Below, one piece after another: positions 36,546 to 53,856 of a stretch of DNA of 64,000 bases. The position numbers and the translations under genes were made by a program. Location: assembly GCA_021163765.1 (NCBI GenBank), contig JAGGTK010000033.1, positions 5,923 to 69,922 of the forward strand. Reading direction: 5' to 3'. Under the pieces are notes generated by a model. It saw only the letters and a list, made by a program, of their open reading frames with translations. It was not told where the DNA came from and did no database searches. The first letter of the stretch is position 1. Each line of letters starts with the position of its first letter. Origin of the DNA: a bacterium (GTDB taxonomy: Bacteria; 4484-113).

Positions 36546-36645
36546 TATTTAGCGTGCCTCCATCTGCCGTACGCGCAAGGGTAGCTGTATTCGGGTCTAA
36601 TTGGGTATAATAGAGCGGTAAACTTCACCTATGAGGTGTAAGAAT

Positions 36646-39600
36646 ATGATGAGAATAACGATTTGGCTCTGGGTGGTCATTCTGATTGCCGCGTTCGCAG
36701 TTGCCTGTGGCGGCGGCAGTAGCGGTCGCGCTCCGATCGCGCCGTCTCAGGAGACTGGCGGCGGAGAACCACCCTCTGACGAGGGCCAACCGTTCTCGGT
36801 GGTGCTAACGGCGACCCCTGACCAGGGACCGACCCCGCTGACGGTTAGCTTCTCAGCCTACGCGTTCGGGGGCTACCCTTCGTATTCGTACGAATGGGAC
36901 TTTGACGGAGACGGAGTAGCCGACTCGAACGCTGTCGACCCGTACTGGACATTCAATAACAGTGCGATTGTCGCAGTCAAGATAACCGATTCGCGTCACC
37001 AGACGGTTACAGTTAGCAAATCGATTACGGTAACCGCCCCAACGGGCGAAACCGGTGGGACTGGAACCCAACCGCTGGTGGTACGATTCCAACCTTCAGT
37101 TAATTCAGGCCCCGCTCCCTTACGGGTGCAGTTCACGGCTCTGGTGACTGGTGGGAGCTCGCCATATGGGTTCATCTGGGATTTCGAGGGCGACGGCGTC
37201 CCCGACAGCAACAGTGAAAATCCGGTGTTCGTCTACGAGCAGCCCGGCCCGCAGATTGGTGATGACTCCTACTTTTACTATCCTGTGCTGACCGTGGTGG
37301 ACAACCGGGGCGTTGAGGTATCCACGGCAGACGACCTGAATGGTGATGGCGAGCCCGATTGGCCTGTCGCGATCAACGTGGTACCGCCATCGGCTCTGCT
37401 GGCCTACGCCGCGGCGAATCCCGGTTCCGGCCAGGCTCCGCTGCCGGTGGTATTCAGCGGTGGCGCTTCGGGCGGAGAACCGCCCTATGAGTTCTACTGG
37501 GATTTCGGAGACGGCACTTACCGCGATTTCGACTCCTCTGTAGTAGCCCAGCACACATACGTGGCGACGGGCAACTACAACGCCCTGCTGACCGTCAGGG
37601 ACAACCAGGGCGTGACGGGAACGAGCGGTATTGTCCCGGTCTACGTGAGCCAGGAAGTCACCTTTAAAGTTCGCATCGAGGCCGACGCGACAGAAGGCCC
37701 TGTCCCCTTCAACGTGCAGCTCACGAGCTACACCGAGGGCGGCAAGGAGCCGGTTCATTACAACTGGGAGGTTTTCACTGACCTTGTTCCGGCCGGAGAG
37801 GAGCCCGTTATTGTGCTCCCGCCCACGTACCCGATGCCGGTGAAAGACCCTCAGGCGATTGTGGTGCCGGATAGGACATCTGACCCCAACCCGGTGATAA
37901 CTTTCGCGACTTACGTTGGCCAGTATGTCGATATGAACGCCAACGAAGCTTACGATGCCGGCGAAGGCGTAGGTGCTCCTTATGTTGTCCGCCTTGTGGC
38001 GAAAGACGACAACGGTGTGGAAGCGGTTAGTAACCTGCTCCGCATCGAGCCGCGTCCGCCCGAGCCCGATACGCTTTACCGCGCCGAGCGCGCCCCGACA
38101 ATCGGCTGGTCAATCTACGGCGGCAACTCCGTCGGCGGCAACCTGCCGGCATTCAGCGCGCGCGCCAATCCTGCAGTAGCTACGCACCCTTCCGGTATGG
38201 TGTACCTGTTCGGTGGCGATGTCTACAATGACGCGGGCGAGTTTACGGGAATCGTGGATCTCCCCAAGTCGTCTTATGCGCTGAACCTGACCGGCACCGA
38301 CCGTACGCCTTCCGGTATGTTCGGCTCGGTATCAGGCGCTGGCGCAGCGGCGGGAGCCTACGAGGATGGCGGATTTACGCTGCTGAACTCGTTGCAGGGC
38401 CTCCCCTACGCGTACATTGGAATGGCGCCTACGGTGAAGACCCCGCCCACGCAAGGCAACGGCGGCCCGCCGAACTGTGGCGGCGCTTTCATGAATCGTA
38501 CGCTACAGAAGAGCGTGCCGTTTGAGCCGCGCGGCTCGGCGGCGGCTACAATGGTGCACGAGGACTGGGACCTGAATCCCGGCGGTTTCGGCTCGTGCCC
38601 CGGATGACAGCCGCGTCCAGACTTAGGCCCAGGTTGGGCCTTGGGTAATGGAGGATACGGCGTTCCGGTGTTCTACGTGTTCGGCGGCCGAAACGAAAGC
38701 GGCGAGCCTCTGGACGTGGTGCAGAAGTACTACCCGGAGACCTACGGTGTCGAGGACCAGTTCCCGATACTGTTCTTCCCCGGTCCGGTAGCGCAGTACG
38801 TGAACGCTCAGACCGACATCTGGTCGGATCGTTTTCAGTTCCACGACTACGACTGGCTCCCGCAGAAAGATCAGTGCATCAACACACCTATCGTGCCGGA
38901 CCGTCCTCCGACACAGGGCGGTGGCGGCCAGGGCGCTGTGCCTTTGAATACGCTTCCCGAGCCGCTTTACGGGCACGCTGCGGTGACTCTCGAGTCTAAA
39001 GGTAACCTGTTCCCGCCGCCCGTGTGGCCGGAATCGCATTACTGCTACGTGTTCATCCTCGGCGGTATCAACGACAGCGGCGTACCGGTTGCCACGATGC
39101 GCTGGTTCAATGTTTGGGCAACCCCGGCCGAGCGCCAGCAGGATGAGGAGCCCTCTGCGGGAGACTACTCAGTTGTCTCGGAGATGCCGGTAGAGCGCGC
39201 ATATCACAGAGCGTTTGTAACACTGCCTGACAAGCTCACCGACAAACCGTGGCGGATAGTTGTCGTTGGCGGTTTCGACCGGAACGGCAATTACATCTCG
39301 CAGGTGGACGAGTACACCTTCGACAGCATTACAGACCCGAGGACGGGTACGTGGAGAACGGTAGCCAACGTTTCGGAGGCTGCTGCTGGTGCTGGAGCAG
39401 GCTGGCAGGAAGACGACCGTGGAATGGTGTATCGCCAGATGGGCGGTCGCACGGTTGACGGTTACACCGGCTCGGTGTATGACGTGCTGTCAAACGGATC
39501 GATGTCCCTGGCTCCCACGGGGCTGATTCCGCGTGGATGGGCCGGAGCAACCGGTGTCAGGGTGTATAACGACTTCTACACACCTGGTGGAGACTTCTAT

Positions 39601-39660
39601 ATTGTCGGTGGCCTGACCCAGATGGGGATGGACACCATTGTTGAGCATTACCGGCCGTAG
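36646..39660 (+). CDS. PKD-repeat / Kelch-propeller lipoprotein, candidate selenoprotein (in-frame UGA 38605-38607 in CPGU)
   Basis: ORFs 36631-38607 and 38641-39660 are in the same frame, separated by one TGA and 33 sense nt. AVAC lipobox; PKD motifs (YEWDFDGDG, FIWDFEGDG, FYWDFGDG); six Kelch GG blades only when joined. Start at 36646 (GAGGTG RBS) or 36631. Confidence 0.75.
38608..38651 (+). promoter_or_regulatory. Candidate SECIS hairpin after the UGA of the PKD/Kelch gene
   Basis: GGCCC-AGGUU-GGGCC at 38626-38640, extendable by ACUUA/UUGGGU pairing; the loop begins 23 nt after the UGA. Confidence 0.55.
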
Positions 39661-39705
39661 AAAGCCGGACGTTCGTGACCCCGATGGTTGGGAGGACGTA
39701 ACCTG

Positions 39706-42486
39706 ATGAAAGTGTTGAGAGCAATCGGTACTTTACTGATACTTCTCGCTGCCGTCGCCGCTTGTGGCGGCGGCGGCAGCAAGGGGAGCATATCCCTGCC
39801 GAGCCAAACGGATGGCAACGGTGACGAGAGCGATCTGAAGATCGTCACGTATACCGCATCTCCCACCACCGGTGGGTCGCCTCTGGGTGTCAACTTCATT
39901 GTCACCATAACCGGCGGGGAGCTCCCTTTCACGTACATGTGGGACTTCGACAATGACGGGGCATTTGACTTCTACGTCAACGAGGTCGCAAGACGCACGG
40001 AACAGTCATACCACCTTTACTACTTGCGGAACGCTGACGTTCTCCAGGGATCGTCCCTCTACCAGGCGGTGGTAAGGGTGAAGGATAACGCCGGTGTGGT
40101 TCGTACCAGCGAGCCGGTGTCAATCCTGATTACGGACGTTCCACAGTTCGCGCTCGACTCTGCACTGACGCGCATTATCAGTGACACTGTAGTCGGGTAC
40201 GACCAGGAAGGGCAGCCGATCTACGCCTACCTTTCCGGTGAGCCGGTTTACTGCCGTGTGTTCCCTGATCCTTCGAGCCCCGGCACTCCTCCCTACCGTT
40301 TCCAGTGGGACTTCGACGGTGACGGGCGGATTGACTCGACCCTGCAGAATCCTCAGTACACCTTCACTGTGCTTGAGGGCGAGTCCGAATCCTTCATCGT
40401 CAATCTGACCGTAACCGACTCCAACGACTACTCGATTACGCGTCAGTTCCCTCTGACGGTGATCAGGCATTTGCCGGAAGAACCCACGGGGCCTCCGGAG
40501 CTTATTGTGAACAGCGCCCCGCCGATTCGGCCTGATGGAACGATCCTGATAGAGTTCGATTCCGCAAGCGACTTCCCTGCCGACCGGGAGCCTCATATGA
40601 ACGCCAGCGTGACGGTATCCCCGGACCATCCGGGCGTGCTTCCGTACGCGTACTTCTGGGACTTCACCAACGACGGCATATACGACGCGAACACGACATC
40701 AGTGTCGGTGCCCTATTACGATTCCGACCTGAACATTTCCATTAACCCGTACAATACGTTTGGCCAGGCGACGCGGGACTTCACTCTGGCGCTGCATTTC
40801 GTCGATGGTATCGGTCAGATAGTGCACCTTGAATGGCCGGTGCGCGTGGTAGATCGCGCCTATGAGCCCGTTGTGGATCCGCTGCTCACTGAAGCCACGG
40901 TCGACATCAACAATGACGGCGTCTACGATGTCCTTGAAGATGGGACCTACGCCGAGCAGGCTAGCACCGTCGCTCTGGCCAGCGACCTGGTTGTTCACTT
41001 TCAGGTGGCTGCGAGCGGCGTGACGGAAAGGCCGGGGTTGTATCGCTTCCAGATTGACATCCTGGGTAACGGCGTATACGCCGAGGATATCAACGAGGGC
41101 GATTCGGACAACCCGATTTATGACCAGACTCTGGAATGGGATCCCGACTATGACGGGATATACGAAGATGTGGATCTTGATGGAGATTCGGAGACGCTCA
41201 ACGAGGCTAGGGTGAACATTACGCCGCAGCCGGGCGGCAAGGAGATTGCCATATTCGAGATCAAATACCCGGCGAATCTCCTGCCCGGATACAAGGCGGT
41301 TCGCACCAAGGTGATAGCAACATCCGAGAGCGGGCTTGAGCTGGCGAGCCGCGTCAACCATGTGCCTGTGTCGCTGGTGGTACCCAGCAGTATCGATTTC
41401 TCTGCCACCGGTGATCCGTTCAGGATGCGTCGCGACTTCGGGATGGCGGCGGTTACCGTCATTGACGACAACGGCACCCCGGACCTGACCGACGACTTCC
41501 TGTCGCAGCGGCGCGTGTTCCTCGTCGGCGGCATGGACGGCAATGTTGCGCTGCGCAGCGTTCAACTCCTGACACAGGAGGCATTGGTGACCACCGGGGA
41601 ATGGGTAGGCCAGGTCAGCGTCAGTGACCGTCTGCCCCTGTCCACGCCTCGGGGACAACTGGCTGCGGAGCCGCTCGGCGGATTCACGAGAGGTGCGAAC
41701 TCGGTCGGCATTTACGCGATTGGCGGCATCAACAATGTTGACCAGACGCTTTCGGTGGTTGAGATGCTCCCGAGTTTCGACGGCGACGGCACCGACTATC
41801 CAACGGTGCCGTGGACGACAGTCGGTTCTATCGGGAACAACAACACGCAGCTAAGGCTTATGTCTTCCGCTTACGGCGTGTCCTACGGAGGTGGGTCATC
41901 GCTCATCGTTATAGGTGGCCTGCAAGGCAATCCTCCGGGCGAGCACGTGAGTGGTACCGGCTGGGTGTTCAGGCCGCAAGACAACGCCTGGTTTAGCTCG
42001 GCCATCAGCCCGATGCCGACGCCCCGGTATGACTTCGCCGCGGTTCTTGACTTCCCGTACCTGTACGCGATTGGCGGAAGAAGCAACGCTGGCGTGAGCA
42101 CGCGAACCGTTGAGAGAGTCCGCCTTGACACCGGGGGCTGGGAGATAATGCCGGATATGAAGTTCTCGCGGGCAGGCGCTGCCGCGGAGATAATCAACGG
42201 CAAGATCTATGTCTACGGTGGCGTTGACTATCCTCAGGATAAGAGCGCGCCCGAGTATATCGGCACGTCGGAAGTGTTCAATCCTGACACTTACGTCTGG
42301 TCCAAGACGGTCGGTCCGGCCCAGGGGCGTGCGGGCGCAGGCTCTGCGGCCCTGTTCACGTACCTGGATGCGGAAGGCAACCCGATGCCCAATGACACAG
42401 TGTGGATAATGGGCGGCGAGACTGCTAACGGTCCCATTGGAACGCTGGCCCAGCTCTACATCGAAGGCGTTGGAAACATAGACTAA
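39706..42486 (+). CDS. PKD-repeat / Kelch-propeller lipoprotein with many DxDxDG loops (paralog of the upstream gene)
   Basis: VAACGGG lipobox; YMWDFDNDG, FQWDFDGDG, YFWDFTNDG; Kelch blades RVFLVGG, IYAIGG, LIVIGG, LYAIGG, IYVYGG, VWIMGG; GGAGG RBS. Confidence 0.87.
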   Translation: MKVLRAIGTLLILLAAVAACGGGGSKGSISLPSQTDGNGDESDLKIVTYTASPTTGGSPLGVNFIVTITGGELPFTYMWDFDNDGAFDFYVNEVARRTEQSYHLYYLRNADVLQGSSLYQAVVRVKDNAGVVRTSEPVSILITDVPQFALDSALTRIISDTVVGYDQEGQPIYAYLSGEPVYCRVFPDPSSPGTPPYRFQWDFDGDGRIDSTLQNPQYTFTVLEGESESFIVNLTVTDSNDYSITRQFPLTVIRHLPEEPTGPPELIVNSAPPIRPDGTILIEFDSASDFPADREPHMNASVTVSPDHPGVLPYAYFWDFTNDGIYDANTTSVSVPYYDSDLNISINPYNTFGQATRDFTLALHFVDGIGQIVHLEWPVRVVDRAYEPVVDPLLTEATVDINNDGVYDVLEDGTYAEQASTVALASDLVVHFQVAASGVTERPGLYRFQIDILGNGVYAEDINEGDSDNPIYDQTLEWDPDYDGIYEDVDLDGDSETLNEARVNITPQPGGKEIAIFEIKYPANLLPGYKAVRTKVIATSESGLELASRVNHVPVSLVVPSSIDFSATGDPFRMRRDFGMAAVTVIDDNGTPDLTDDFLSQRRVFLVGGMDGNVALRSVQLLTQEALVTTGEWVGQVSVSDRLPLSTPRGQLAAEPLGGFTRGANSVGIYAIGGINNVDQTLSVVEMLPSFDGDGTDYPTVPWTTVGSIGNNNTQLRLMSSAYGVSYGGGSSLIVIGGLQGNPPGEHVSGTGWVFRPQDNAWFSSAISPMPTPRYDFAAVLDFPYLYAIGGRSNAGVSTRTVERVRLDTGGWEIMPDMKFSRAGAAAEIINGKIYVYGGVDYPQDKSAPEYIGTSEVFNPDTYVWSKTVGPAQGRAGAGSAALFTYLDAEGNPMPNDTVWIMGGETANGPIGTLAQLYIEGVGNID

Positions 42487-42504: not shown

Positions 42505-42536
42505 AAAAGAGGGGCGTGCCTGTGGGCGCGCCCCTC
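42505..42536 (-). terminator. Intrinsic terminator (U-tract on the minus strand, possibly bidirectional)
   Basis: aaaa-GAGGGGCGTGCC-tgtg-GGCGCGCCCCTC: 12-bp stem between convergent operons. Confidence 0.7.
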
Positions 42537-42618: not shown

Positions 42619-43284
42619 TCACGGAACGTCTGGGTTCAGCTCCAGCGCCATTGAAGCCAGGTAAGTCTCGTTGGGGAATCTTCGCAATCCTTCTTCCAGG
42701 AACTCCTGAGCGGTGTCGAATCGGCCGCGCTTGAGTTCGATCTTCACTGCAAGCCGCCAGGCTGGCGCGAGGTACGGGATAAGTTCGATTGCCCGCTCGA
42801 TGTGATACGAGGCGTCAGCGTAATACTGGCGGCGGGCGGAAGTCAGCGCAAGGTTGAAGTGCTGCTTGCCGATCGTCTCGGCTTCGTGAAGTGAGATGAT
42901 TTCGTGGAGCAGCGCCGGCTTCTCCCGCACCGCGTCGGGCAGGGCTTGCGCCTGTTCCCACGCGTGCGAGAACCGCCTTTCACCAAGCGCAATGCGGGCT
43001 TGCAGCAGCGCCACCTGCTCTGCTACCAGAGGAGTCATCGTCTGAGCCTTGCTGCCCAGTTCGCGCGCGCGCTCAATCTCGCCGCGCGTTACGGCGTTGA
43101 AGGCTTCCGTGAGCGACTTATTCGCTTCGTCCAGTTGCTCATAGTAGGGCGTGAGCTGTGCGCCGCAGCCTGGGCATACCTCTGCGCGGCCTGAGAGTTC
43201 ACCGCGGCAGACCGGACATTCTTTCAACTGTGCCAAAAGCAATTCGTCAACCAGTATGCCCGTATTAGTACGAGTAGTCCGCAA
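42619..43284 (-). CDS. Zinc-ribbon + TPR protein
   Basis: CPVC...CPGC followed by TPR-like helices (AKQHFNLAL-type, HIERAIELIP, FLEEGLRRFP); start codon uncertain. Confidence 0.75.
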   Translation of the reverse strand: MRTTRTNTGILVDELLLAQLKECPVCRGELSGRAEVCPGCGAQLTPYYEQLDEANKSLTEAFNAVTRGEIERARELGSKAQTMTPLVAEQVALLQARIALGERRFSHAWEQAQALPDAVREKPALLHEIISLHEAETIGKQHFNLALTSARRQYYADASYHIERAIELIPYLAPAWRLAVKIELKRGRFDTAQEFLEEGLRRFPNETYLASMALELNPDVP

Positions 43285-45013
43285 TCAGACCTGTAGCCTT
43301 CTCAATATGCTCTTCGAGCAAAGAGAGATCTTCGGACTTCAGGGCCTCCTTTATCTTATTGGCCATTTCGCTCAGCCGGGAGATCTCGATACTGTCGATT
43401 TTTTTCTCGCCCTTCTCGCCGGCCCGAATGAGCAGAGTGAGGTCTTTGAGTGTGCTCTCCGCCTCGTATAGCACCTTCGAGCGCTCGCGCTGGGCCAGCA
43501 TCGAGCCGGTATGCCGGCTCACGTCACGCTGGGCGTGGGCCACCTCGTCTGTGGTTAGGCGCTTCTTCGAGGCTTTAATCGTGATTGACTTGCCCTGGGC
43601 GGTTTTCCTGTCTTTTGCGGTGATCTTCACGATTCCATTGACGTCGTAGTCGAAAAAGACCTCAACCAGGGAATCGCCCCTTGCCGCCGGTGTGATTTCG
43701 GAGAGTATGAACTCGCCAAGCGATTCGTTTTGCGACGCCTTGTCGCTTTCGCCCTGCAACACGTGAATGAGCGCCTCAGTCTGGCCGTCCACCGTGGTGC
43801 GGTAAAGGCTCTTGCGCGAGCAGGGGATGGCGGTGTTGCGGGGGACGATGCGGGAGAACTTGTCGCCTTCGGTTTCAATGCCAAGCGTAAACGGGGCAAC
43901 GTCGACCACGACGAACTCTTCCAGCGAGCCGCGCTTGATTCCGGCCTGAATCGCCGCGCCCATGGCAACGCACTCTTCCGGGTTGATGTCCTTGAGCGCC
44001 TCTTTGCCCATCTCGTCTCGGACGAGCCGCTGGACCATCGGTGTTCGTGTCATGCCGCCGACCAGGATGATGGCGTCAACCTGCTCGGGCGCAAGATTGG
44101 CATCAGAGAGCGCGAGATGGATCGGCTGCTGCGTTTGCTCGACAAGGTCGCGTACCAGTTCCTCGTACTTCGCCCGGGTCAGGGTTTCGTGCAGGTGAAC
44201 CGGTTCCTCGCCTTCGGTATAGATGAACGGGAGGTTAACCTCAGTCTCAAGGAGCGATGAAAGGTCGATTTTGGCGGTTTCCGCGGCTTCCTTCAGGCGC
44301 TGGAGGATAGCGCGCTGTTGTGACACGTCAGGGATGTTCTTCAGGTCGATCTTTTCTTTGTCCTTGAAGCGCTCGATGAGGTACTCAACGACGCGGTAGT
44401 CAAAGTCATCGCCGCCCAGGTTGTTGTTGCCGGTTGTAGCGAGCACTTTGAAGGCGCCCTCGACCATCCGGATCAGCGAGACATCGAACGTGCCGCCGCC
44501 GAGGTCGTAAACGAGGATTGTTCGTGCCTCTCCGCCCTTGTCGAATCCGTATGCAAGCGCTGCGGCGGTGGGCTCGTTTATGATGCGTTCCACCTTGAAT
44601 CCCGCGATCTCCCCGCCGTCCTTCGTGGCCTGCCGCTGCGCGTCGGTGAAGTACGCGGGAACGGTAATAATAGCTTCGTTCACGACAGACCCCAGATAAG
44701 TTTCGGCGTCGAGCTTCAGCTTCTTGAGGATAACTGCGGAAATCTCCTGCGGTGAGTACTCCTTCTCCCCGATTACGATGCGCCGGTCCGTGCCCATCAG
44801 TCGCTTGATGCTTGTCACGGTGCGTTCGGGATTGGCTACCGCCTGATTCTTCGCCGGTTCGCCCACAAGCAGCTCGCCGGTGTCAGTGAATCCCACGACA
44901 GAAGGGGTGATAAACTTGCCGCGCTCGTTCGGGATGAGCGTCGGCTTGCCGTCAATGACAGCAGCAACCAGGGAGTTTGTAGTTCCCAAGTCAATTCCAA
45001 CAATCTGCGACAT
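43265..45013 (-). CDS. Hsp70-family chaperone (DnaK paralog with short C-terminus)
   Basis: GIDLGTTNS, TVPAYF, INEPTAAALAYG, YDLGGGTFDVS, VGGMTRTP, HVLQGE; 582 aa. Confidence 0.93.
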   Translation of the reverse strand: MSQIVGIDLGTTNSLVAAVIDGKPTLIPNERGKFITPSVVGFTDTGELLVGEPAKNQAVANPERTVTSIKRLMGTDRRIVIGEKEYSPQEISAVILKKLKLDAETYLGSVVNEAIITVPAYFTDAQRQATKDGGEIAGFKVERIINEPTAAALAYGFDKGGEARTILVYDLGGGTFDVSLIRMVEGAFKVLATTGNNNLGGDDFDYRVVEYLIERFKDKEKIDLKNIPDVSQQRAILQRLKEAAETAKIDLSSLLETEVNLPFIYTEGEEPVHLHETLTRAKYEELVRDLVEQTQQPIHLALSDANLAPEQVDAIILVGGMTRTPMVQRLVRDEMGKEALKDINPEECVAMGAAIQAGIKRGSLEEFVVVDVAPFTLGIETEGDKFSRIVPRNTAIPCSRKSLYRTTVDGQTEALIHVLQGESDKASQNESLGEFILSEITPAARGDSLVEVFFDYDVNGIVKITAKDRKTAQGKSITIKASKKRLTTDEVAHAQRDVSRHTGSMLAQRERSKVLYEAESTLKDLTLLIRAGEKGEKKIDSIEISRLSEMANKIKEALKSEDLSLLEEHIEKATGLIADYSY

Positions 45014-45021
45014 AATGTCTC

Positions 45022-45729
45022 CTATAAATGCGAATTATCATGGCTTGTCTCAGCGTTTCCGCCATGGCGGTTGCGGACAACAACTACCTGCGCGGCGCGC
45101 AGAATTCTTCCGCCCAGCGTGTAACCGGTGAGCTGTACCTGCGAGATTGAGCCATCGGGCTTGGCTGGGTCCTCCACGGTGGCCATTGCCATGTGCCGGT
45201 TTGGGTCAAACATTTCGCTTTCCGGCATCGGCTCCACGCCAAGCTTCTTAAGCCTGGCCAGCAGGAGCCGGTAGATGGCCTCCACGCCCGTCAGCACGCT
45301 TTCGGGAATCCCATCCGTGCTCCGGGCCGATTCGAGAACCCGCTCACAGGAATCTGCGACTTCGAGAAAGCCCTCAATGGCGGATCTGAGGGGGTCCAGG
45401 TCGGCCACGTCCGCGACCTTGCCCATTAGTCTCCGCATCTCCGCCCGCAAACCGTCAATGTCCTCGCCGACGCGGTTCAGTCCAACGACCTCAAGCGCCG
45501 GCATCTGCAAGTTCTTCACATTCCGCTGCAAGCGAAACAGCTCGATGCGAATCCGGTTTAGTTCGGTCTGGTACTCATACAGGCTGTGCCCGGATACATC
45601 CCCCTTGGATGTTGCTGGCGCACCGCTAACCCCCAGCCCGAAACTAATATTGTAATATTGCTCAGAACCGAAGTCAACGCGGGCGGCGGCCTGCCGCAAA
45701 TTCAAGCGCCTTTTCCGCGTTGCTTTCAC
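45022..45729 (-). CDS. grpE: GrpE-like nucleotide exchange factor (divergent N-terminus)
   Basis: FLEVADSCERVL, LKKLGVEPM, FDPNRHMAM, GYTLGGRILRAAQVVV; GTGA overlap with the upstream stop. Confidence 0.8.
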   Translation of the reverse strand: MKATRKRRLNLRQAAARVDFGSEQYYNISFGLGVSGAPATSKGDVSGHSLYEYQTELNRIRIELFRLQRNVKNLQMPALEVVGLNRVGEDIDGLRAEMRRLMGKVADVADLDPLRSAIEGFLEVADSCERVLESARSTDGIPESVLTGVEAIYRLLLARLKKLGVEPMPESEMFDPNRHMAMATVEDPAKPDGSISQVQLTGYTLGGRILRAAQVVVVRNRHGGNAETSHDNSHL

Positions 45730-48700
45730 AGTACGGATATGTCTCCCAGCTTAAAGTAGATCTGTATCGAGTCAGCCAGCTTGGCGATGATTGTCTCCGG
45801 CGGGGTGTCGTCGGGCTCAAGCTGCGAGTAGTCCGGCCCCGGCACTTTAACTCGCAGGTTCAGATCCTCAAATACGGAGCTGACGCGCCGGTCGCCGAGG
45901 ACCATCTGTCGCAGCCTGCCTGCGTCCACCGGATTGTAGGCGAATATATCAATGCGTTCTCGCTTGTGCTGGTCGGTCAGATTCGCGTAAGCGTCCTCAA
46001 GCAGCATGAAGTCGGAGGCGTGGCGTTCCGGGTCGAATATTTTAACCAGCCTGAAGTAGCTCTTCTCGATTTGCCCCTTGGTGGCGGTCTTGTCGAGCCC
46101 CAGTATCCAGTAGAACTCGTTTGCCCGCCGGTAGTAATCCACCATCTCTTCGGTCTTGGCAATGTAAACCTCATCAGCTTCCTGTGTCTTGACCACGAAC
46201 ACGTCTGACAGCAGCCGCTCCACCTCGCCGATAGCAACCGTGAGGTGGGCGTGGCTTTGCGGGTCTCGTTCCACCATCACCCTCCAGCGGTTCATCAGCC
46301 GGCGCCAGTGCAATGCTGAGAGGTCGAAGTCCTCTACCGACATATGTGCGATGGCAACGTTCTGGATGATGGCGAGGTTGTCCGGGTCGTATTCGGTGGC
46401 TTTTTCCCATTCGGCGATTGCCAGCTTGATGTTGCCTTTCTGCGCGAGCGTGTAGGCGTTGAGATTCAGGGTGTACGCCCAGAGCTTCGGGAGATGCTGG
46501 AAGTTCTCGTCGAACTTCTTGAGATCTTCCCAGGTTTCCATCGCTTCCTGGGCGTATCCGGCCTCCAAAAATGCCAGCCCTATTTCGAGCAATTGAGCGA
46601 GCTTGGTCTCATCGTGGGTCTGCCGGGCCTGAGATGCATCCAGCAGTTGCTTCCAGTAAGTTATCGCAAGCGTGCGGTCGCCCTTCTTTGCGGCTGCCTT
46701 TCCCTGGAACCACAGGCGCTGCATCGTCTGGTGTTCGCCCTTGGCATGCTTCGTCAGCAGGTCAAGCGCACGCTCGTACTGGCCGTCATGAATGTAAAAC
46801 GCGGCGAAGGGGATGGGGCTTTTCGCATCCTCGGGGAACTCAAACTCCTTGAACGTCTCGCTTCCCTCCTGCTCCTCATCGGCGAGATACGTGTCGAGCA
46901 GCAGTGGTATGTTGGCCGCTATCAATGTCCCGCGGCGCTTAAGGTCCAGGAAAACGCGCCACGCCTTCCGGGTCTGCTTGTTCTGCAGGTAGCAATAAGC
47001 CTGGGACCGTTCAAAGGTTGGCATATCTGTCGTCCAGGTGATGTCGCGGTAGTATATCAACGCCTGCGAGTACTTATTCAGCAGATGATATGAGTATGCG
47101 AGGTATATCTTGGCTTCGATGCTCTTTGGAAGGATGCGGTGGGCGACTTCAAGAATCTTCACAGCCATCTCGTAATCGCTGTCGAAGAAGAACCGCTTTG
47201 CATAGTTGACGAGCAGTTCTACAATGACGCTCCTCAGCATCCGGTCGTTGCGGTTGGCTTCAACGCTTTCAAGGAAGCTGTTCAGCGCATCATCCCATTC
47301 CCCCTGCTGTATTTGCTCGTAGCCGTGAAGCACGAGGATATAGGAATAGTTGCGCTGCTCTGCGCGGCCGTTCGGGTTGTAGCGGTAGACCTCTCCAAGT
47401 TTGCGCCGCGCCTCGGCAGTTGCGCCCATACGCCAGAGCGCCAGCCCGATTTCTATGTCTACCCAGCGGCGGTACGGCAGTCCGCCAGGATTTTCCAGCA
47501 ACTCGTTGTACAGCTCTACGGCGTCGCCGTAATCTCCCAGAAGCTCGGCGTTAAGGCCTTTGCGCAGCTTGATGAGGACTTCCGGGACGGCGTCTCCGTC
47601 CAGCTCGAGTTTCTTGATTAAAGGTGATGCTTTCTCGGGCTTGTTCTCCTGCTGATACGCCGCTGCCCGCCAGTAAAGGACATAAGACGCTTTCTCCTGC
47701 GATTTCACCGTGTCCAGCAGCGCAAACGCCTGTTCCGTCTTGTCTTCATACAGGCGGATCTTGGCAAGCTGATAGTCGTTTTCTTCAGTATGGTGGTATT
47801 CGTTAGCAACCGAATATGCGCGTGCGGCAAGCTCGTAGTTGTAACGTTCCAGGTAGAAGTGGCCGATTTGCTGAAGGACATCCAGTTCCCCGGCTTTCTT
47901 GAGCTCATCGGCGAGCCGCGCGCTGTCAGCCTCCAGGCATCGGACGGCCAGGTGCAGGCGGTACTTGTATTCCTGGTTATGGTTCAGGACGTGGTCCAGC
48001 AGGTAAAAGGCGATGTTTGCGGGGCAGCTAAACTTCTCGCTCTCAAAGCGTTCGTAGAATATCTGCCTTCTCAGGTTTTCTTCGGCCGCCACCTCTTCCG
48101 GCTGTTCGATGAGGATGTCAGACAGGATTCCTATCAGCTTGACATCCTGGGTTCGTGCGTCGCCCAGCTTTTTGTAGAGCTCCAGGTAGATCTCCACTGC
48201 CTCCTTGTCCCGCCTGTTTAGCGTCAGGAAGCACTTCGTACGGGCCTCGTGGAGTTTCTCTTTGCGGGTTCCGGTCGCGGACTGCAAAGCCAGCTCGATA
48301 TATTCAAGGGTGCGCTTGTCGTAGTTGCCATCCTCTATCCGGTGCTCCGCCATCAGCAGCGCTATTCGGTTGCGTATATCTGTATCGCTTATGTAAGGGA
48401 AAGCGCGCTCGTAAACTGAATAGGCCTTGGGCTGGCGGGTTTCGAACGTCAGGTAGCTTGCGGCAAGCAGGGGGAGGATGTCGGTATTCGTCGCGTCATG
48501 CACCAGCGACTTCTCGTAAATAACCTGCGCCTGCTCGTCAATCCGTTTCTTCTCCACATAGGTCGCGGCGAGCAGGCTGTACAGCCTGGGCGTTCTACGT
48601 TCCGGCCATGACCCCAGATAGTGCTCGTATACCTTGCACGCGAACTCATCCCGTCTGTCCTCGCTGAGAAAGTGCTCGGTCAGCACGAGAGTGATGCGCT

Positions 48701-49700
48701 TCGTGAGCAGGTTGTTCTTCAGCGCCTCCTCGTAGGCCATCAGGGCTTCGTTCGAGAAGTTGCCTTCTTCTGCGAACGCCTGGGCGAGGAATGCCAGGAC
48801 GTTCTTGTTGAAGTAACCTGCGCGGAACACGAGCAGCAGGAGCCGCTTCTTGTCGAGAAACTCCTTCCTCGTTCGCAGCAGGTACGCCGCAAGGTTCTCC
48901 AGTATGTCGTGGCGCGGCAGTTTCTTTTCAAGCGCCTGGTCGATATAGCCGACGGTGCCGGGAGTGATCTCGTGCTGCTCCACGTAATATTCCGCCAGCA
49001 GGCGCAGCGCATCGTCGTTTTCGCGCCCGGCTTCCAGCAGGTCTCGGTATAGCTTCGCAGCGAAGTCGCTCCGTTCATTGTTGGCTATCAGGTGCTTCAG
49101 CAGGATTTCCACCAGCTTCTCGTCGTGCTTGCGCGTTGGATACGCTATGCGGTAAATCTCGACGGCTTCGTCGTCCTCGCGCCCCTGGGAAAGGAATCTG
49201 TCGGCAATAAGGCTGCTTCCGCCTTTCCAGAGGGTAAAGGCCTTGCTGGCTTCCACAACGAGCTCGAATTCGGTATCGGTCAGCACAGCGTCGCCGTCGC
49301 CCACCAGTTTTTTCGCGTAGCTCAGCAGGAATCCTTTCTCGTCCGCGGTGTGCTTGGCAAGATCCAGGATATAGTCCGTCGCCTCCGGCGAAACGAGGTC
49401 CATTTCCTCAATGAGGATCGCGCCCTCGCGCAGCAGTGATTCGTTGTGCTTGGCTTGGTGGGAAAGCTGGTAATGCTCCAGGGCTCCGGGGTCTTTCAGC
49501 TTTGCGAGACAGCGGCCCCACTGTGCGTGGAGTTCGGCGTATTCGTCAATCTTGTCCTCGGGCGGAGGGGAGGGCATTTGCTCGGCAAGCTTCTCTATCA
49601 TACGCAGGGCGTCTTCGGTTTTGCCCTTGCGCAGCAGATCTGCCGCCCTTTTCAGGGACGCGCCTCCAACAAGCCCCGATAGAACGCGAAGTATCCCCAT
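45726..49700 (-). CDS. 1324-aa TPR-like repeat protein with C-terminal J-like domain (HPD replaced by DPE)
   Basis: All-helical repeats; YWILGLDKTATKGQIEKSYFRLVKIFDPERHASDFMLLEDAYANLTD at 45972-46115. Confidence 0.85.
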   Translation of the reverse strand: MGILRVLSGLVGGASLKRAADLLRKGKTEDALRMIEKLAEQMPSPPPEDKIDEYAELHAQWGRCLAKLKDPGALEHYQLSHQAKHNESLLREGAILIEEMDLVSPEATDYILDLAKHTADEKGFLLSYAKKLVGDGDAVLTDTEFELVVEASKAFTLWKGGSSLIADRFLSQGREDDEAVEIYRIAYPTRKHDEKLVEILLKHLIANNERSDFAAKLYRDLLEAGRENDDALRLLAEYYVEQHEITPGTVGYIDQALEKKLPRHDILENLAAYLLRTRKEFLDKKRLLLLVFRAGYFNKNVLAFLAQAFAEEGNFSNEALMAYEEALKNNLLTKRITLVLTEHFLSEDRRDEFACKVYEHYLGSWPERRTPRLYSLLAATYVEKKRIDEQAQVIYEKSLVHDATNTDILPLLAASYLTFETRQPKAYSVYERAFPYISDTDIRNRIALLMAEHRIEDGNYDKRTLEYIELALQSATGTRKEKLHEARTKCFLTLNRRDKEAVEIYLELYKKLGDARTQDVKLIGILSDILIEQPEEVAAEENLRRQIFYERFESEKFSCPANIAFYLLDHVLNHNQEYKYRLHLAVRCLEADSARLADELKKAGELDVLQQIGHFYLERYNYELAARAYSVANEYHHTEENDYQLAKIRLYEDKTEQAFALLDTVKSQEKASYVLYWRAAAYQQENKPEKASPLIKKLELDGDAVPEVLIKLRKGLNAELLGDYGDAVELYNELLENPGGLPYRRWVDIEIGLALWRMGATAEARRKLGEVYRYNPNGRAEQRNYSYILVLHGYEQIQQGEWDDALNSFLESVEANRNDRMLRSVIVELLVNYAKRFFFDSDYEMAVKILEVAHRILPKSIEAKIYLAYSYHLLNKYSQALIYYRDITWTTDMPTFERSQAYCYLQNKQTRKAWRVFLDLKRRGTLIAANIPLLLDTYLADEEQEGSETFKEFEFPEDAKSPIPFAAFYIHDGQYERALDLLTKHAKGEHQTMQRLWFQGKAAAKKGDRTLAITYWKQLLDASQARQTHDETKLAQLLEIGLAFLEAGYAQEAMETWEDLKKFDENFQHLPKLWAYTLNLNAYTLAQKGNIKLAIAEWEKATEYDPDNLAIIQNVAIAHMSVEDFDLSALHWRRLMNRWRVMVERDPQSHAHLTVAIGEVERLLSDVFVVKTQEADEVYIAKTEEMVDYYRRANEFYWILGLDKTATKGQIEKSYFRLVKIFDPERHASDFMLLEDAYANLTDQHKRERIDIFAYNPVDAGRLRQMVLGDRRVSSVFEDLNLRVKVPGPDYSQLEPDDTPPETIIAKLADSIQIYFKLGDISVL

Positions 49701-49724
49701 TTGGTGTGTTTCCCTGGAAATAGC

Positions 49725-49733
49725 ATTATATCA
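49725..49733 (-). promoter_or_regulatory. Extended -10 element upstream of the TPR-J/GrpE/Hsp70 operon
   Basis: TGATATAAT on the minus strand about 25 nt before ATG 49700; no clear -35 and no CIRCE seen. Confidence 0.4.
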
Positions 49734-49824: not shown

Positions 49825-50787
49825 CTAGTCGAAAGACACGTTTATGCTGGCCACGCCCGAAGTGATGCTCAGGTCCACAAACGGAGTCCCAGGTTCGTAG
49901 TCTTCGCTGCACCAGTATCCGTCGGTTTTCGTAAGGCCTGCCTTCGTAAAATTCGTTGAGGAAAGTGCGCTTTCGGTTTCTATCCGCAGCGGCGTGCCTT
50001 CGGGGAAGGCGAGGTCGAGGTCCGACGCTCCCAGGTCGATGTCGACCGTATAGCCCTCAGCGTCCGGCGCGGGCAGAGATGCGTCGATGGAGGCAGCGCC
50101 TGCGTCAATGTCGAGGTGGGAAAGCAGCATATCCTCCAGGTCGAGTTCGCACGCCGACGCGCCAACATCTAGGTCAAGGGACAGAGGTATGCCCACCGGA
50201 AGCTGGACGTTCCATTTCTCCTTGAAATTGCCCCATTTGCCTTGGTAGTGCGGCGACGCCGCGTACATCTTGAGCGTGTTGCCGTCCAGCTCGAAGTTCA
50301 CCGTCGGCTCGCCCGTATTCGCCCTGATTTCCACGCCGATATAGGCGTCCTCAGAAGAGGATTCAACGTCAAGGCTCGCCGCTCCCAGGTCAAACTCCAC
50401 ATTCAGCTCGTGGACATCCTCGGTGCTCTCGTAGTCGTATGCGTATTCGGTCATATCGCGGGATTCTGGTGCGGTAAGGCCTATAAACTTCGGCAGGTGC
50501 CAGCCTCCGCTCTCGTTATCCACCGGCGCCCACGTCGCTGCGTACGCGAAGGCCAGTATGAGTATCACCGGCGAGAGGTAAGAGATAAACTGAAGGCTCG
50601 TATTGCGCAGGATGATGTTCAGGCCCCAGACGATGAGCAGCACCGGCCAGAGACGCCACACGTTCACCCAGACGTCGCTGCTGAGATACCCCGTGTTTAC
50701 GCCCAGCAGCGTCACTCCGATGAGCAGGATAAGCGTGCCCCAGAACAGGCTGTTTACGATGTCACCTTTCTTGTGTGGATGAGTCAC
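49825..50787 (-). CDS. LiaF/LiaI-like TM domain + toastrack (DUF2154/DUF4097-like) beta-domain protein
   Basis: LFWGTLILLIGVTLL...WRLWPVLLIVWGL; beta-repeats ELNVEFDLGAASLDV, LDLDVGASACELDL. Confidence 0.78.
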   Translation of the reverse strand: MTHPHKKGDIVNSLFWGTLILLIGVTLLGVNTGYLSSDVWVNVWRLWPVLLIVWGLNIILRNTSLQFISYLSPVILILAFAYAATWAPVDNESGGWHLPKFIGLTAPESRDMTEYAYDYESTEDVHELNVEFDLGAASLDVESSSEDAYIGVEIRANTGEPTVNFELDGNTLKMYAASPHYQGKWGNFKEKWNVQLPVGIPLSLDLDVGASACELDLEDMLLSHLDIDAGAASIDASLPAPDAEGYTVDIDLGASDLDLAFPEGTPLRIETESALSSTNFTKAGLTKTDGYWCSEDYEPGTPFVDLSITSGVASINVSFD

Positions 50788-50791
50788 TGCA

Positions 50792-51226
50792 TTACCTCCC
50801 GTTTCCAGCGCTGAAGCCGTTTTTGAAAACTCCGGTTATCGTGAGGAATCCGAGCACGAGCAGCGCCAATGCTACCGCCAACTGCACAACGAGCGAGGTG
50901 GCGGTGGATCCCAGGAGCGCGAAAACGCCGACTACCAGAAGCACGATGCCGACGAAAAGCCCCCGGTGCTGCGGCGTAACTTCCCGCTTTGCCCGATGCC
51001 TGTGCTCGCTGTCCCAGGTCATATCCGAGCGTTCGGCCGGCACGAGCATCCACGCCAGGACGTAGATGAGCAGTGCGACTCCGCCCGTTGTGAAGAAAAG
51101 CAGTAGCCATATAGCGCGCACGATCAGCGAGTCTATATCGAAGTAATCCGCCAGCCCGCCGCATACGCCGCCCAGGATCTTGTCGCTCTGCGACCGGTAA
51201 ACCTTTCTTTTAGTTCCTGCCGCCAT
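50792..51226 (-). CDS. pspC: PspC-domain membrane protein
   Basis: YRSQSDKILGGVCGGLADYFDIDSLIVRAIW...LLIYVLAWMLVP. Confidence 0.88.
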   Translation of the reverse strand: MAAGTKRKVYRSQSDKILGGVCGGLADYFDIDSLIVRAIWLLLFFTTGGVALLIYVLAWMLVPAERSDMTWDSEHRHRAKREVTPQHRGLFVGIVLLVVGVFALLGSTATSLVVQLAVALALLVLGFLTITGVFKNGFSAGNGR

Positions 51227-51230
51227 TGCC

Positions 51231-52388
51231 TTATCGCCTTCTGATGTTGAGTTTCGCCGCGTTGTTTTCCAGATGCATCCGTACCTTCCGCGGGTTGCTG
51301 TCGAAGTCCTCGCTATAGTAGTGGTCGTTCACGCGCCGGGGCAGCAGATCGGTAACGTTGTGCCTGCCCACATTGCTGTCCACCGTGGCTTCGTAGGCGA
51401 AGTCCGCAGGGAGAACCAGGTCGAACTTGGCGGCGTTGTTGTCAATTCGCAGTGTGGCCTCGTTCTCGCGGGAGCCGATGCGGACCTCGCTGGCGGCTGC
51501 ATTGTTTCCCATTGCGAGTGATGTCAGGCGCAGCTTGCTGAAATCCAGGTTCGCCTTGGCCGCGTTCACGTCGCAGTTCATTGTAAGGGGCAGCTCGCCG
51601 TTGAGCTTAAGGGTCCATACGGTGCGCACTCCAAACATGCGAACGGAGCTCTTAAAGTGCGCCTGCTCTATCTTGAGCCGCGCTACCTTCACGCCGTCGG
51701 TTTCTTCCAGCGAAACATCAACCTGCGGCTCTACGTCGGAGCCCGGCCCCGTGTCAATCTCGAACAGCTTGTCGGTGTCCCCGGCAAGCTCCAGCTTGCC
51801 CGCGTTGAAGTCCAGGTCGCAGATCAGTCGCTCCGCGCCTTCAGGCACGTCCGCGAGGAAGTGGGCGCTCCGGTCGCGGTACTCTCCTTCTACGGCAGCA
51901 GCGGCGCTTTCTTCCCGCGCTTCGGATTCGGGCCGTTTCGTTTCGTCAGTCATTTCAACACCTCCCGGCTCAGATGATGCCGCGCCAGCCTTGGAAGTTC
52001 CATCTGCGGTTTCATCTCGGACCGCGTACTTAACGTTCTTCACTTCCTGCGCAGAAGCGCCCGTTTTGACCTTGACCCGCTTTTCCCGCGGGTCGTGCTC
52101 CGTTGCGCTGAATATAATCAGCAATCCGACAACAATCAGCACCGGCGCCCAGAACCCCGTGTGGCTCAGGCCGAGAATGCTGGGAGCCAGCGCGTCCGCC
52201 AGCAGCACCAGGGCAACGACAATCAGCCCTCCCCGATACGCCGGGCTGAGCCCGTGCGCGAGAAGCGCGTAGACAACTACCAGCAAGGGCCAGAAGCGCA
52301 GCACGAGCGAGATATCCTGCACGATGACGCCAAGCAGCAATATGGCTCCAAGAATCACCAGCATTACGCCAAACGTGGTGTGTCTCAC
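51231..52388 (-). CDS. LiaF-like TM domain + toastrack beta-domain protein
   Basis: FGVMLVILGAILLL...RFWPLLVV; acidic linker; DLDFNAGKLEL, DVNAAKANLDFSKL repeats. Confidence 0.75.
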   Translation of the reverse strand: MRHTTFGVMLVILGAILLLGVIVQDISLVLRFWPLLVVVYALLAHGLSPAYRGGLIVVALVLLADALAPSILGLSHTGFWAPVLIVVGLLIIFSATEHDPREKRVKVKTGASAQEVKNVKYAVRDETADGTSKAGAASSEPGGVEMTDETKRPESEAREESAAAAVEGEYRDRSAHFLADVPEGAERLICDLDFNAGKLELAGDTDKLFEIDTGPGSDVEPQVDVSLEETDGVKVARLKIEQAHFKSSVRMFGVRTVWTLKLNGELPLTMNCDVNAAKANLDFSKLRLTSLAMGNNAAASEVRIGSRENEATLRIDNNAAKFDLVLPADFAYEATVDSNVGRHNVTDLLPRRVNDHYYSEDFDSNPRKVRMHLENNAAKLNIRRR

Positions 52389-53287
52389 TTCGCACCTCCT
52401 TGGTTCTCGTTCGCAAAGTCCAGCTCGACTTCGCCTCTCTTGTTGGCTTCGACCCGCCCGAGCATCTCACCGTCCAGGCCCATAAGCGCCAGCGGCTGCG
52501 AGATCCCGGTTATTGTGAGCTGCCAGTCCGCATGCTTAACGGTAAGCTTCCTTTTGGACCTCGTGACCTTTAACGAACCCACGCTGGCCGCGTCCAGCTT
52601 CATAAGCAGCGCGTTTTCCGAGAGCGCGAGCCTGATCTGCGGTTCCTCAAATCTCACATAGGGGACATTCCGGGGAAGCTTTAGCGTAAGCGCGCCTGGC
52701 GTCTCCCCGCGAAACGAGAGCGCGATGGTCTCGCTGTCAACGGGCGAAATATCGGGCGACTTCAACTCGCCGCTTCCCACCGCCGTGACGCCCAGCGTGC
52801 TCTTTCTGGACCGCCCGAAGTCAAGCGCGGTCTCGTTGCATACAGCGGGCACGTCAAGCGCCAGATCAATCCCGGTGGGAGATGCCAGTTCGCGGGTGAT
52901 GCTGAGCCTCACCGTTTCGGGCTTCCCGCCAACTCCATCGTCGTTATCCAGGCTTGCCGTAATACCTTTGGCTTCTTCATCTATTCCCTCGAAACTCTCG
53001 CCAATGCCCTCTCCGAGCTTTCCCATCTGTTCGCCAAACTCCTCGCCGGCCTTCCCCATGTGCTCGCCAAATTCGCCCATGCGCTCACCGAACTCGTCCA
53101 TGCGCTCACCGAACTCCTCCATGTTTTTTTCCATGTCCGACGCGATGCGCTCGGCGTGTTTGGCTGCACGGTCAGCGGCGTGTTCTGCCCGCAGCAAGTC
53201 AAAGGCATCGCCCCTAAACGCGCAGCGGTTGAATAACAGGCCTATTACCAGCAGGAGCGCCAGTACTGTTATATCTTTGAATGTCAT
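52385..53287 (-). CDS. Hypothetical exported protein with 7-aa amphipathic repeats
   Basis: Signal/TM segment; (E/G)EFGERM repeats; AGGAGG RBS; TGATG coupling to the upstream gene. Confidence 0.72.
   Translation of the reverse strand: MTFKDITVLALLLVIGLLFNRCAFRGDAFDLLRAEHAADRAAKHAERIASDMEKNMEEFGERMDEFGERMGEFGEHMGKAGEEFGEQMGKLGEGIGESFEGIDEEAKGITASLDNDDGVGGKPETVRLSITRELASPTGIDLALDVPAVCNETALDFGRSRKSTLGVTAVGSGELKSPDISPVDSETIALSFRGETPGALTLKLPRNVPYVRFEEPQIRLALSENALLMKLDAASVGSLKVTRSKRKLTVKHADWQLTITGISQPLALMGLDGEMLGRVEANKRGEVELDFANENQGGAK
53010..53135 (-). repeat. Imperfect 21-bp tandem repeats encoding EFGERMD/G heptads
   Basis: catgcgctcaccgaactc recurs at a 21-nt period around 53078-53123. Confidence 0.7.
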
Positions 53288-53856
53288 CAACGCACCTCCT
53301 TTCGGTGCCCGCCGGTGTGATACCAGATGACGAAAAGGCCGAGCGCGATGGTGACTATCGCAGCAAGGCCGGATGCCAGGTCGCGGGAGACTGTGTTGAG
53401 AGCCCAGATGATGTTACGCGCGAGCAGGGCGATGCCGATAAACAAAATCACCAGCCCCGCGAACTGCCGGAAATTGATGAGGGCGCGGCCCTTGCTTTCC
53501 TCCTCAACCAGCGGATAGAAGTAATCCCAGATGCTCACGCCGTACGCCAGGAATATGAAGACAGCCTCGCCCGAGAATGCGGCGAGGAAGAAGTACACCA
53601 GCAGCAGCGAGCCCTTGTAGCTTTCGCCTTTCAGCAACTGCGCCAGTCCGGGGAGCACCAGGCCCACCCAGGCGGGCGAGTCGTCGTGGGCCGCATTTTG
53701 CGCACCGTTCGCGCGGGCACGCTCTTCTCGCTGCAGGCATCGCGGGCAGACAGCCTTGCCGTTACGGGTGGTCCGGCAGTGCTCACAGATGGGCTTGCCG
53801 CAGATATCACAGCGCACGTCCGTTTCGATTTCGGGATGGTAGAAGCAACGGCTCAT
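53287..53856 (-). CDS. B-box-type zinc finger + multi-TM protein
   Basis: CFYHP...CDICGKPICEHC...CPRC followed by about 4 TM helices. Confidence 0.8.
   Translation of the reverse strand: MSRCFYHPEIETDVRCDICGKPICEHCRTTRNGKAVCPRCLQREERARANGAQNAAHDDSPAWVGLVLPGLAQLLKGESYKGSLLLVYFFLAAFSGEAVFIFLAYGVSIWDYFYPLVEEESKGRALINFRQFAGLVILFIGIALLARNIIWALNTVSRDLASGLAAIVTIALGLFVIWYHTGGHRKEVR

Follow-up and report, generated by a model that had tools for sequence, protein, structure and literature searches.

A 64,000-nucleotide stretch of DNA (the window; GenBank assembly GCA_021163765.1, contig JAGGTK010000033.1, positions 5,923 to 69,922 of the forward strand) from a bacterium of the lineage 4484-113 carries four close-packed open reading frames (ORFs), all on the minus strand within positions 42619-49733, that probably encode a second Hsp70 machine. 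We give a probability of roughly 60% to the reading that this machine is insulated from the housekeeping DnaK, that a giant solenoid selects or scaffolds its client, and that it belongs to the core genome of its phylum. The products are referred to here by working names, given in 5' to 3' order along the operon: TPRJ, a solenoid of the tetratricopeptide repeat (TPR) type with a J-like domain; GrpE2, a GrpE-type nucleotide exchange factor; Hsp70-2, a DnaK-like paralog; and ZnR-TPR, which combines a zinc ribbon with TPR-like helices. The sequence comes from a metagenome-assembled genome (1.9 Mb, 78.6% complete) that was recovered from samples of hydrothermal vents and marine sediment.

A Second Hsp70 System beside a Canonical One

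An earlier, sequence-only reading of this DNA had proposed a dedicated Hsp70 machine with its own co-chaperones, a proposal to be given up if the operon held the only dnaK and grpE in the genome. A separate canonical set is present: contig C11 carries a dnaK that scores above Hsp70-2, followed by grpE and dnaJ, and contig C34 carries a CIRCE element (controlling inverted repeat of chaperone expression) followed by hrcA and dnaJ. Five other genomes (G001-G005), four from the same phylum, including one complete 4.1-Mb chromosome, and one (G005) from a second phylum, each contain exactly two full-length Hsp70 genes and two GrpE genes.

At C34:18171 (locus L007:2884), a perfect palindrome, TTAGCAGTC-N9-GACTGCTAA, lies upstream of hrcA-dnaJ and agrees with the CIRCE consensus in 16 of the 18 arm positions. 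It is the sole good CIRCE in the 78.6%-complete assembly, none being found at the C11 dnaK within five mismatches. Control of the operon itself by HrcA and CIRCE was considered and rejected, as no CIRCE is found upstream of TPRJ in any locus, even at five mismatches.

Hsp70-2 and GrpE2

Hsp70-2 matches the Pfam Hsp70 family (PF00012) with 612 bits and passes one NCBIfam DnaK model. It is 47% identical to the genome's own DnaK on contig C11 and about 55% identical, as estimated from the alignment, to Geobacillus DnaK. The ATP-binding and catalytic residues D8, K70, E171, D194, T199, and D201 are all kept, together with a hydrophobic interdomain linker (VVVD) and a complete substrate-binding domain (SBD).

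The residues through which an Hsp70 meets its co-chaperones were compared between 28 members of the Hsp70-2 clade and eight canonical DnaKs, using E. coli numbering and the contacts given by Mayer (2021; PMC8215388). All eight canonical proteins have an acidic residue at position 206 and Glu at 217, whereas 217 is Lys in 28 of 28 clade members and 206 is Lys or Arg in 24 of them and Gln in the other four (Arg in the Hsp70-2 of the window). In the GrpE-binding loop, E31 is replaced by Arg in 27 of the 28, against Glu in 8/8 canonical DnaKs. R167, Q378, P419, and D477 are retained, and L391 becomes Val or Ile.

In a phylogenetic tree, Hsp70-2 and its relatives from other uncultured lineages form a clade (support 98/90), and the canonical DnaKs stand apart (100/98). 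Signatures of the clade include the linker VVVDVAP(F/Y), an I-P-C-S motif in most members, the absence of a disordered C-terminal tail, and a six-residue insert in the nucleotide-binding domain (NBD) at the DLKNIPDVSQQRAI stretch, which we assign to subdomain IIB. Best matches that appeared Firmicutes-like share the paralog signature and fall in the same clade, and were rejected as evidence of transfer from a canonical Firmicutes DnaK. Also rejected was an EEVD-like C-terminal tail serving a TPR carboxylate clamp: the end of the protein (...ADYSY) aligns with the last lid helix of DnaK, and is thus a truncation. At the position of the E. coli substrate-arch residue M404, Hsp70-2 has Glu (E381, window 43798-43800), a residue common to the window's subclade (11 of the 28 sampled members) and replaced by Ile or Val in the others. 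As judged from sequence, this suggests an unusual client preference.

GrpE2 matches PF01025 with 89.9 bits over profile positions 44-164 of 165 and aligns with chain A of structure 1DKG; its scores against the NCBIfam equivalog models are all under the cut-offs. No sign of membership in the HscA/HscB system was seen, there being no isc genes near the operon and the HscA model scoring below its cut-offs. A GrpE-Hsp70-zinc-ribbon trio of the same paralog clade, with no TPRJ adjacent, occurs in the "bacterium JZ-2024" lineage (L026:3430-10422), downstream of two pseudopilin-like (N_methyl/PilW_C) genes.

A J-like Domain without the HPD Triad

The J-like domain of TPRJ passes the Pfam DnaJ model PF00226 (34 bits, against a gathering cut-off of 27.8), aligns with the E. 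coli DnaJ J-domain structures 5NRO and 1XBL, and has its helices predicted at the expected positions in an AlphaFold model. This C-terminal match to a J-domain model is the sole DnaJ-type match of the protein in Pfam and NCBIfam, where none of the class A or class B DnaJ features was found. Alignments of close and distant relatives contain no TPRJ member with the HPD triad. In its place the window has D-P-E and nearly all relatives have N-P-E; among close and distant members alike, P-E does not vary and N-P-E-R hardly does. The J-like domain is also the most conserved segment of TPRJ, and its helix II-III loop is six residues shorter than that of DnaJ. The near-invariance of N-P-E-R and this peak of conservation argue for selection on a working contact and not for decay.

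DnaJ is positioned on DnaK by the basic residues R22, K26, R27, K48, and K51 (Mayer 2021, PMC8215388). The J-like domain retains one of the five, R27; in place of the other four it has Glu (R22), Phe (K26), Met (K48), and Glu (K51), and within the triad H33 is replaced by Asn or Asp and D35 by Glu. Sequence comparison thus finds both sides of the J-domain/Hsp70 docking surface to differ from the canonical pair, consistently across the family. The claim of the sequence-only reading that each component departs from its housekeeping version was borne out, the key case being this change of HPD to (N/D)PE with matching charge reversals in the Hsp70. HPE variants make up approximately 1% of J-domains, DjlB and DjlC among them (PMC10410713); no report of an NPE variant was found in the literature searched.

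The TPRJ Solenoid and ZnR-TPR

TPRJ is a cytoplasmic, all-helical solenoid of approximately 58 helices, followed by the J-like domain and then by a conserved C-terminal tail of approximately 70 amino acids. Pfam TPR matches lie within residues 650-1136, and residues 1-600 match no Pfam family. An AlphaFold model of residues 126-1324, with a mean predicted local distance difference test (pLDDT) of 88 and a predicted template modeling score (pTM) of 0.50, has a continuous solenoid leading into the J-like helices; its best fold matches in the PDB are the giant TPR scaffolds IFT139/TTC21B, Ski3, and Ctr9, at low TM-score. Purifying selection is even along the whole solenoid, with no hypervariable region, and the length of TPRJ stays at 1314-1351 amino acids from 90% down to 16-18% identity and across two phyla. 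So fixed a length is unusual among repeat proteins and suggests, on the evidence of alignments, a structure whose size matters.

The tail (window 45726-45935, residues about 1256-1324) is mostly non-helical, yet is modeled at a pLDDT of about 64-92, and it ends in a conserved hydrophobic-x-hydrophobic-x-LGD(W)xVV motif. To go by the model, the tail may dock back into the groove of the solenoid, which raises the question of auto-inhibition. A C-terminal beta-clamp-binding motif of the QL[SD]LF type is absent from TPRJ, whose end reads ...IYFKLGDISVL, and the family consensus at this end, hydrophobic-x-hydrophobic-x-L-G-D-W-x-V-V, contains no conserved Gln.

ZnR-TPR gives a weak double-zinc-ribbon match and a TPR match in Pfam. 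Its model (pLDDT 95) consists of an N-terminal four-Cys ribbon (CPxC...CPxC) and nine TPR-like helices, for which a fold search returned generic TPR matches only, with TM-scores below 0.4. The fold searches with the TPRJ and ZnR-TPR models point to no particular function, leading to generic TPR scaffolds at low TM-score only. One ortholog of ZnR-TPR (L025:9767-10510) has a C-terminal transmembrane helix (…IVLLIIIIVILLTR); in some lineages, the module may act at the membrane.

Distribution and Synteny

TPRJ forms only 14 clusters in a set of 5.8 billion proteins. Its first 620 residues have only 48 relatives at E<=0.001 among 1.84 billion representatives, including members of 1315-1334 amino acids that are just 24-26% identical over this region; a profile search of the 5.8-billion-protein set for further relatives was swamped by generic TPR proteins and added none. 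The order TPRJ-GrpE-Hsp70-ZnR-TPR is found in 14 of the 14 related genome loci whose length is sufficient to reveal it, so the arrangement is not due to chance. Across these loci, identity to the proteins of the window is 72-96% for Hsp70, 38-90% for TPRJ, 33-89% for GrpE, and 28-80% for ZnR-TPR.

A whole-genome survey found TPRJ in single copy in all 24 species genomes of the phylum (13 of 13 genera, four families) and in all 14 genomes of the second phylum, the one that holds G005. There, TPRJ-GrpE and the Hsp70-2-type paralog lie at two separate loci but still co-occur. Such a gene, universal, single-copy, and syntenic among small genomes, belongs to the core and not to a mobile defense island; its presence everywhere in one copy suggests a constitutive cellular process more than an accessory trait. 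Universal and part of the core in at least two uncultured phyla, whose genomes are small, the system would be likely to serve a client basic to their cell biology.

Operon Layout and Neighboring Genes

Features of the operon are listed in Table 1. The GTG start of GrpE2 overlaps the TPRJ stop codon (GTGA), and an 8-nt gap, with AGGAG sitting over the grpE stop codon, separates GrpE2 from Hsp70-2. The sequence-only reading had described both of these junctions and had taken all four genes to be tightly coupled; the overlap that it assumed at the third junction is less certain. ZnR-TPR is likely to start at the TTG at 43242, 22 nt past the Hsp70-2 stop, because orthologs start six to nine residues before the CPxC motif, an overlapping TTG at 43284 being possible. 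The extended -10 element and the shared terminator of the earlier reading were both found in the sequence. The former was read directly, a consensus promoter scan having missed it because there is no -35 match, and a TATAAT-like element just 5' of the giant gene is present in related loci too, one in each lineage. The terminator hairpin (42536-42509) is followed by TTTT on the minus strand. GC content of the operon equals that of its flanks.

Table 1. Features of the operon and its signals in the window
Feature	Position	Strand	Basis
Promoter element, extended -10 (TGaTATAAT), 25 nt before the TPRJ ATG	49725..49733	-	Read directly
TPRJ, TPR-type solenoid and J-like domain, 1324 aa	45726..49700	-	Pfam, AlphaFold model
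J-like domain, TPRJ residues 1195-1251	45948..46118	-	Pfam DnaJ PF00226
D-P-E triad codons	46026-46034	-	Alignment to the HPD position of E. coli DnaJ
GrpE2, GrpE-type nucleotide exchange factor, 235 aa	45022..45729	-	GrpE PF01025
Hsp70-2, DnaK-like paralog, 582 aa	43265..45013	-	Pfam HSP70
ZnR-TPR, zinc ribbon and TPR-like helices	42619..43242 (ORF to 43284, 221 aa)	-	Pfam, ortholog starts
Intrinsic terminator, 12-bp GC-rich hairpin and T-run	42505..42536	-	Common to the convergent Kelch gene

Upstream of the operon and co-directional with it (49825-54398, minus strand) is an envelope-stress operon encoding a LiaF-TM/toast-rack protein, PspC, a further LiaF-TM protein, and three ORFs with no Pfam match; this PspC/LiaF operon precedes TPRJ only in the window and in closer relatives. 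On the other side, a convergent PKD/Kelch cluster (36631-42486, plus strand) adjoins the operon in most, not all, loci of the phylum. Other lineages have groESL (L025) or rbfA/truB (L032) as neighbors, and in L032 the divergent neighbors are rbfA, a DHH-family gene, and truB. In the second phylum (L029/L030 and L044, the latter being G005:C76), TPRJ-GrpE lies immediately upstream of rpsP-khpA-rimM-trmD-rplS. A link to ribosome biogenesis through rpsP-rimM-trmD-rplS, or through rbfA/truB in L032, could be a hint or chance, and we did not adopt it, the evidence being too thin.

Proposed Mechanism and Alternative Explanations

We propose the following scheme. The TPRJ solenoid would bind or scaffold a specific client or assembly, and the J-like domain would sit at the junction of linker, NBD, and SBD-beta of Hsp70-2 and trigger ATP hydrolysis, which would make Hsp70-2 clamp onto the solenoid-bound client. 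In the triad, Asn could substitute for His33 as hydrogen-bond donor to the linker backbone, and Glu could substitute for Asp35 opposite the retained Arg167 and Gln378. GrpE2 would reset Hsp70-2, and ZnR-TPR may be a further adaptor, membrane-tethered in one lineage. The charge reversals would bar DnaJ from Hsp70-2 and TPRJ from DnaK, so that two Hsp70 cycles could run in one cytoplasm with no cross-talk.

More tentatively, and with the odds somewhat against it, the operon may be a naturally orthogonal Hsp70 cycle, in which the J-domain code (HPD and a basic helix II facing an acidic patch) has been rewritten on both partners and a phylum-defining solenoid with a fixed length of approximately 1320 amino acids drives an essential assembly or remodeling step apart from general proteostasis. 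HPD is regarded as indispensable, and a near-invariant N-P-E with a charge-reversed Hsp70 would test that rule in nature; if the idea is true, the NPE domain would be without precedent as a J-type domain that functions although both His and Asp of HPD are replaced. Such a system would also illustrate the way in which parallel Hsp70 circuits are insulated within cells, and would offer ready-made orthogonal chaperone parts.

Several observations weigh against an insulated second machine. The net charge of helix II, by our own count of aligned residues, is similar to that of DnaJ, only specific positions being different, and D477 of Hsp70-2 is retained although K51 of its partner has become Glu, so that a one-to-one charge-swap picture is incomplete. 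Because ATPase stimulation was lost in every tested system when His33 or Asp35 was replaced (PMC8215388), the NPE domain may give no stimulation at all. The sequence-only reading had remarked on the lack of hrcA, CIRCE, and canonical dnaJ; this is correct for the operon and the window, but in the sister family TPRJ is immediately preceded, on the same strand, by hrcA and a class A dnaJ. Because of this arrangement a canonical DnaJ could still serve Hsp70-2, and a heat-shock link for the operon is conceivable. A search for RNA-seq runs covering an operon gene found none, and the client is one that we infer entirely.

The position of dnaJ in the sister clade, directly upstream of TPRJ in six loci, is one reason to ask whether the J-like domain is for docking or regulation only, as in Pam16/Tim16. 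TPRJ would then tether or restrain Hsp70-2 on the solenoid while a genuine J-protein with HPD, for which the hrcA-linked class A DnaJ is a candidate, does the stimulating. The absence of HPD from every member and the effect of the His33/Asp35 substitutions noted above agree with such a division of labor. Yet the hrcA-linked DnaJ keeps an ordinary basic helix II, which the Lys or Arg at 206 and 217 of Hsp70-2 should disfavor; dnaJ is unlinked to the operon in the window's genome and close relatives; and the near-invariance of N-P-E-R suggests that the domain makes a specific contact at the catalytic junction. We consider a docking-only domain unlikely, if worth keeping in mind. Another explanation would make the operon no separate machine but the general DnaK operon of the lineage, inducible by stress, in which hrcA-grpE-dnaK-dnaJ has been rearranged and two TPR proteins have been added as accessory factors. 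The sister-clade order hrcA-dnaJ-TPRJ-grpE-hsp70-ZnR-TPR fits this, as do the divergent groESL of L025 with a CIRCE-like palindrome in the intergenic region, the cyclophilin genes near the operon in L034, and the envelope-stress operon upstream in the window. It is nevertheless improbable: every genome tested has another DnaK-GrpE pair with higher family-model scores, no TPRJ locus has a CIRCE upstream of the gene and each has its own TATAAT, the DnaJ- and GrpE-docking residues are reversed, and Hsp70-2 has Glu in its substrate arch and lacks the C-terminal tail.

Two further explanations were weighed. The machine might serve its neighbors, holding the large PKD/Kelch lipoproteins until they are exported or remodeling Psp/Lia-type components in the manner of HSP70B-CDJ2-CGE1 acting on VIPP1, since the convergent PKD-Kelch-Kelch cluster adjoins the operon in most loci, even where TPRJ identity has fallen to 38%, and the PspC/LiaF operon lies directly upstream in closer relatives. 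Both neighborhoods are, however, lost in lineages that keep the four genes (L017, L018, L025, and L032), the second phylum has quite different neighbors (rpsP-rimM-trmD-rplS), and the cluster contains no PspA homolog, all of which makes this very improbable. The sequence-only reading had itself suggested a conflict or anti-phage sensor system built on the Hsp70 cycle. Hsp70, GrpE, and a DnaJ- or TPR-bearing protein do occur in the conflict neighborhoods of GAP1-N2 GTPases (Kaur et al. 2020, PMC7159879), and long TPR arrays can act as sensors, but here that suggestion failed. The operon and flanking genes encode no GTPase (GAP1-N2/DO or other), tubulin, effector, or EAD domain; in PADLOC-DB three of the proteins had no match and Hsp70-2 only one weak match (E = 3e-4, 17.5 bits), nothing being significant; TPRJ is universal, single-copy, and syntenic in two phyla (24/24 and 14/14 genomes); and neither the even purifying selection along the solenoid nor a GC content like that of the flanks fits a defense role. 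We therefore rejected this hypothesis and give it almost no credence. The second, insulated Hsp70 machine remains our preferred reading.

Comparison with Known Systems

Specialized Hsp70/J pairs are already known, namely HscA/HscB and HscC with DjlB/DjlC. In the literature searched we found no paper describing the operon, no specialized pair with a private GrpE or with a giant TPR scaffold fused to a J-like domain, no NPE triad, and no Hsp70 with reversed docking charges.

The three functional roles and the folds of the operon are those of the housekeeping DnaK-DnaJ-GrpE system (hrcA-grpE-dnaK-dnaJ type), and hrcA-dnaJ is adjacent in the sister clade. The operon differs in being a second copy in every genome tested, in its reversed docking residues, and in having no HPD, G/F region, zinc-finger, C-terminal DnaJ domains, C-terminal Hsp70 tail, or CIRCE. 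Among eukaryotic proteins, DNAJC3 (p58IPK) and DNAJC7 (Tpr2) likewise have TPR repeats followed by a C-terminal J-domain, the TPR portion binding clients or partner chaperones. Unlike TPRJ, they are of about 500 amino acids, have a canonical HPD, and work with a general Hsp70, and there is no evidence of homology beyond the shared domains. Pam16/Tim16 has a J fold without HPD in a dedicated Hsp70 motor, where Pam16 regulates the true J-protein Pam18; in contrast, the operon encodes no Pam18-type partner, and its NPE triad is strictly conserved. The GAP1-N2 systems share the gene themes described above but differ from the operon, which has neither a GTPase nor an FNIII protein and has the phyletic pattern of a core gene.

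Scanning metagenomes for the J-like motif yielded further full-length TPRJ operons and also proteins of 449-460 amino acids with an N-terminal (P/Q)PER J-like domain, which an Hsp70 gene precedes in both loci that extend upstream. The one such locus annotated, L093 (4107-8344), has the order GrpE, HscC-type Hsp70 (with the loop L1,2 insertion), a TPR protein of 285 amino acids, and a J-like protein of 449 amino acids in which an N-terminal PPER J-like domain is followed by TPR repeats and a C-terminal SEC-C zinc motif. Similar proteins of 458-460 amino acids, likewise with a (P/Q)PER J-like domain at the N terminus, are encoded in L094 and L095, and the one in L095 is preceded by an Hsp70 gene.

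The closest known system is that of E. coli HscC (Hsc62) with DjlB and DjlC, encoded at the djlB-ybeT-ybeU-djlC-hscC locus. There too a specialized Hsp70 is encoded beside a private J-type partner, and the locus also encodes a TPR-like (Sel1) protein. Like the J-like domain of TPRJ, DjlC has Glu in place of Asp35 and a helix II-III loop shortened in the same way, and HscC shares with Hsp70-2 an N-terminal TNSL and a PY/PF-(S/T)-LG-(I/V)-E motif in the SBD. In L093, an HscC-type Hsp70 is linked to a J-like/TPR protein of the PPER type that shares homology with the J-like domain of TPRJ. There are also differences. DjlB and DjlC have HPE where TPRJ has NPE, His33 being replaced as well, and their remaining architecture is unrelated. 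HscC keeps E206 and E217, which are reversed in Hsp70-2; a 2002 study by Kluck reportedly saw no interaction of HscC with GrpE, whereas Hsp70-2 has its own GrpE, translationally coupled and co-occurring in all genomes tested; and the partner of Hsp70-2 is a 1324-amino-acid solenoid with a C-terminal J-like domain. The hallmark of HscC, an insertion of four to eight residues in loop L1,2 of SBD-beta (Mayer 2021, PMC8215388), is present in E. coli HscC and in the L093 Hsp70 but missing from Hsp70-2 and its entire clade. For want of this insertion we rejected membership of Hsp70-2 in HscC, whose own branch in the tree was too long to place. With the operon, the few known types of bacterial Hsp70 gain a further, defined clade, and if the more tentative idea of an orthogonal cycle is true, DnaK, HscA, and HscC would be joined by a fourth kind of system.

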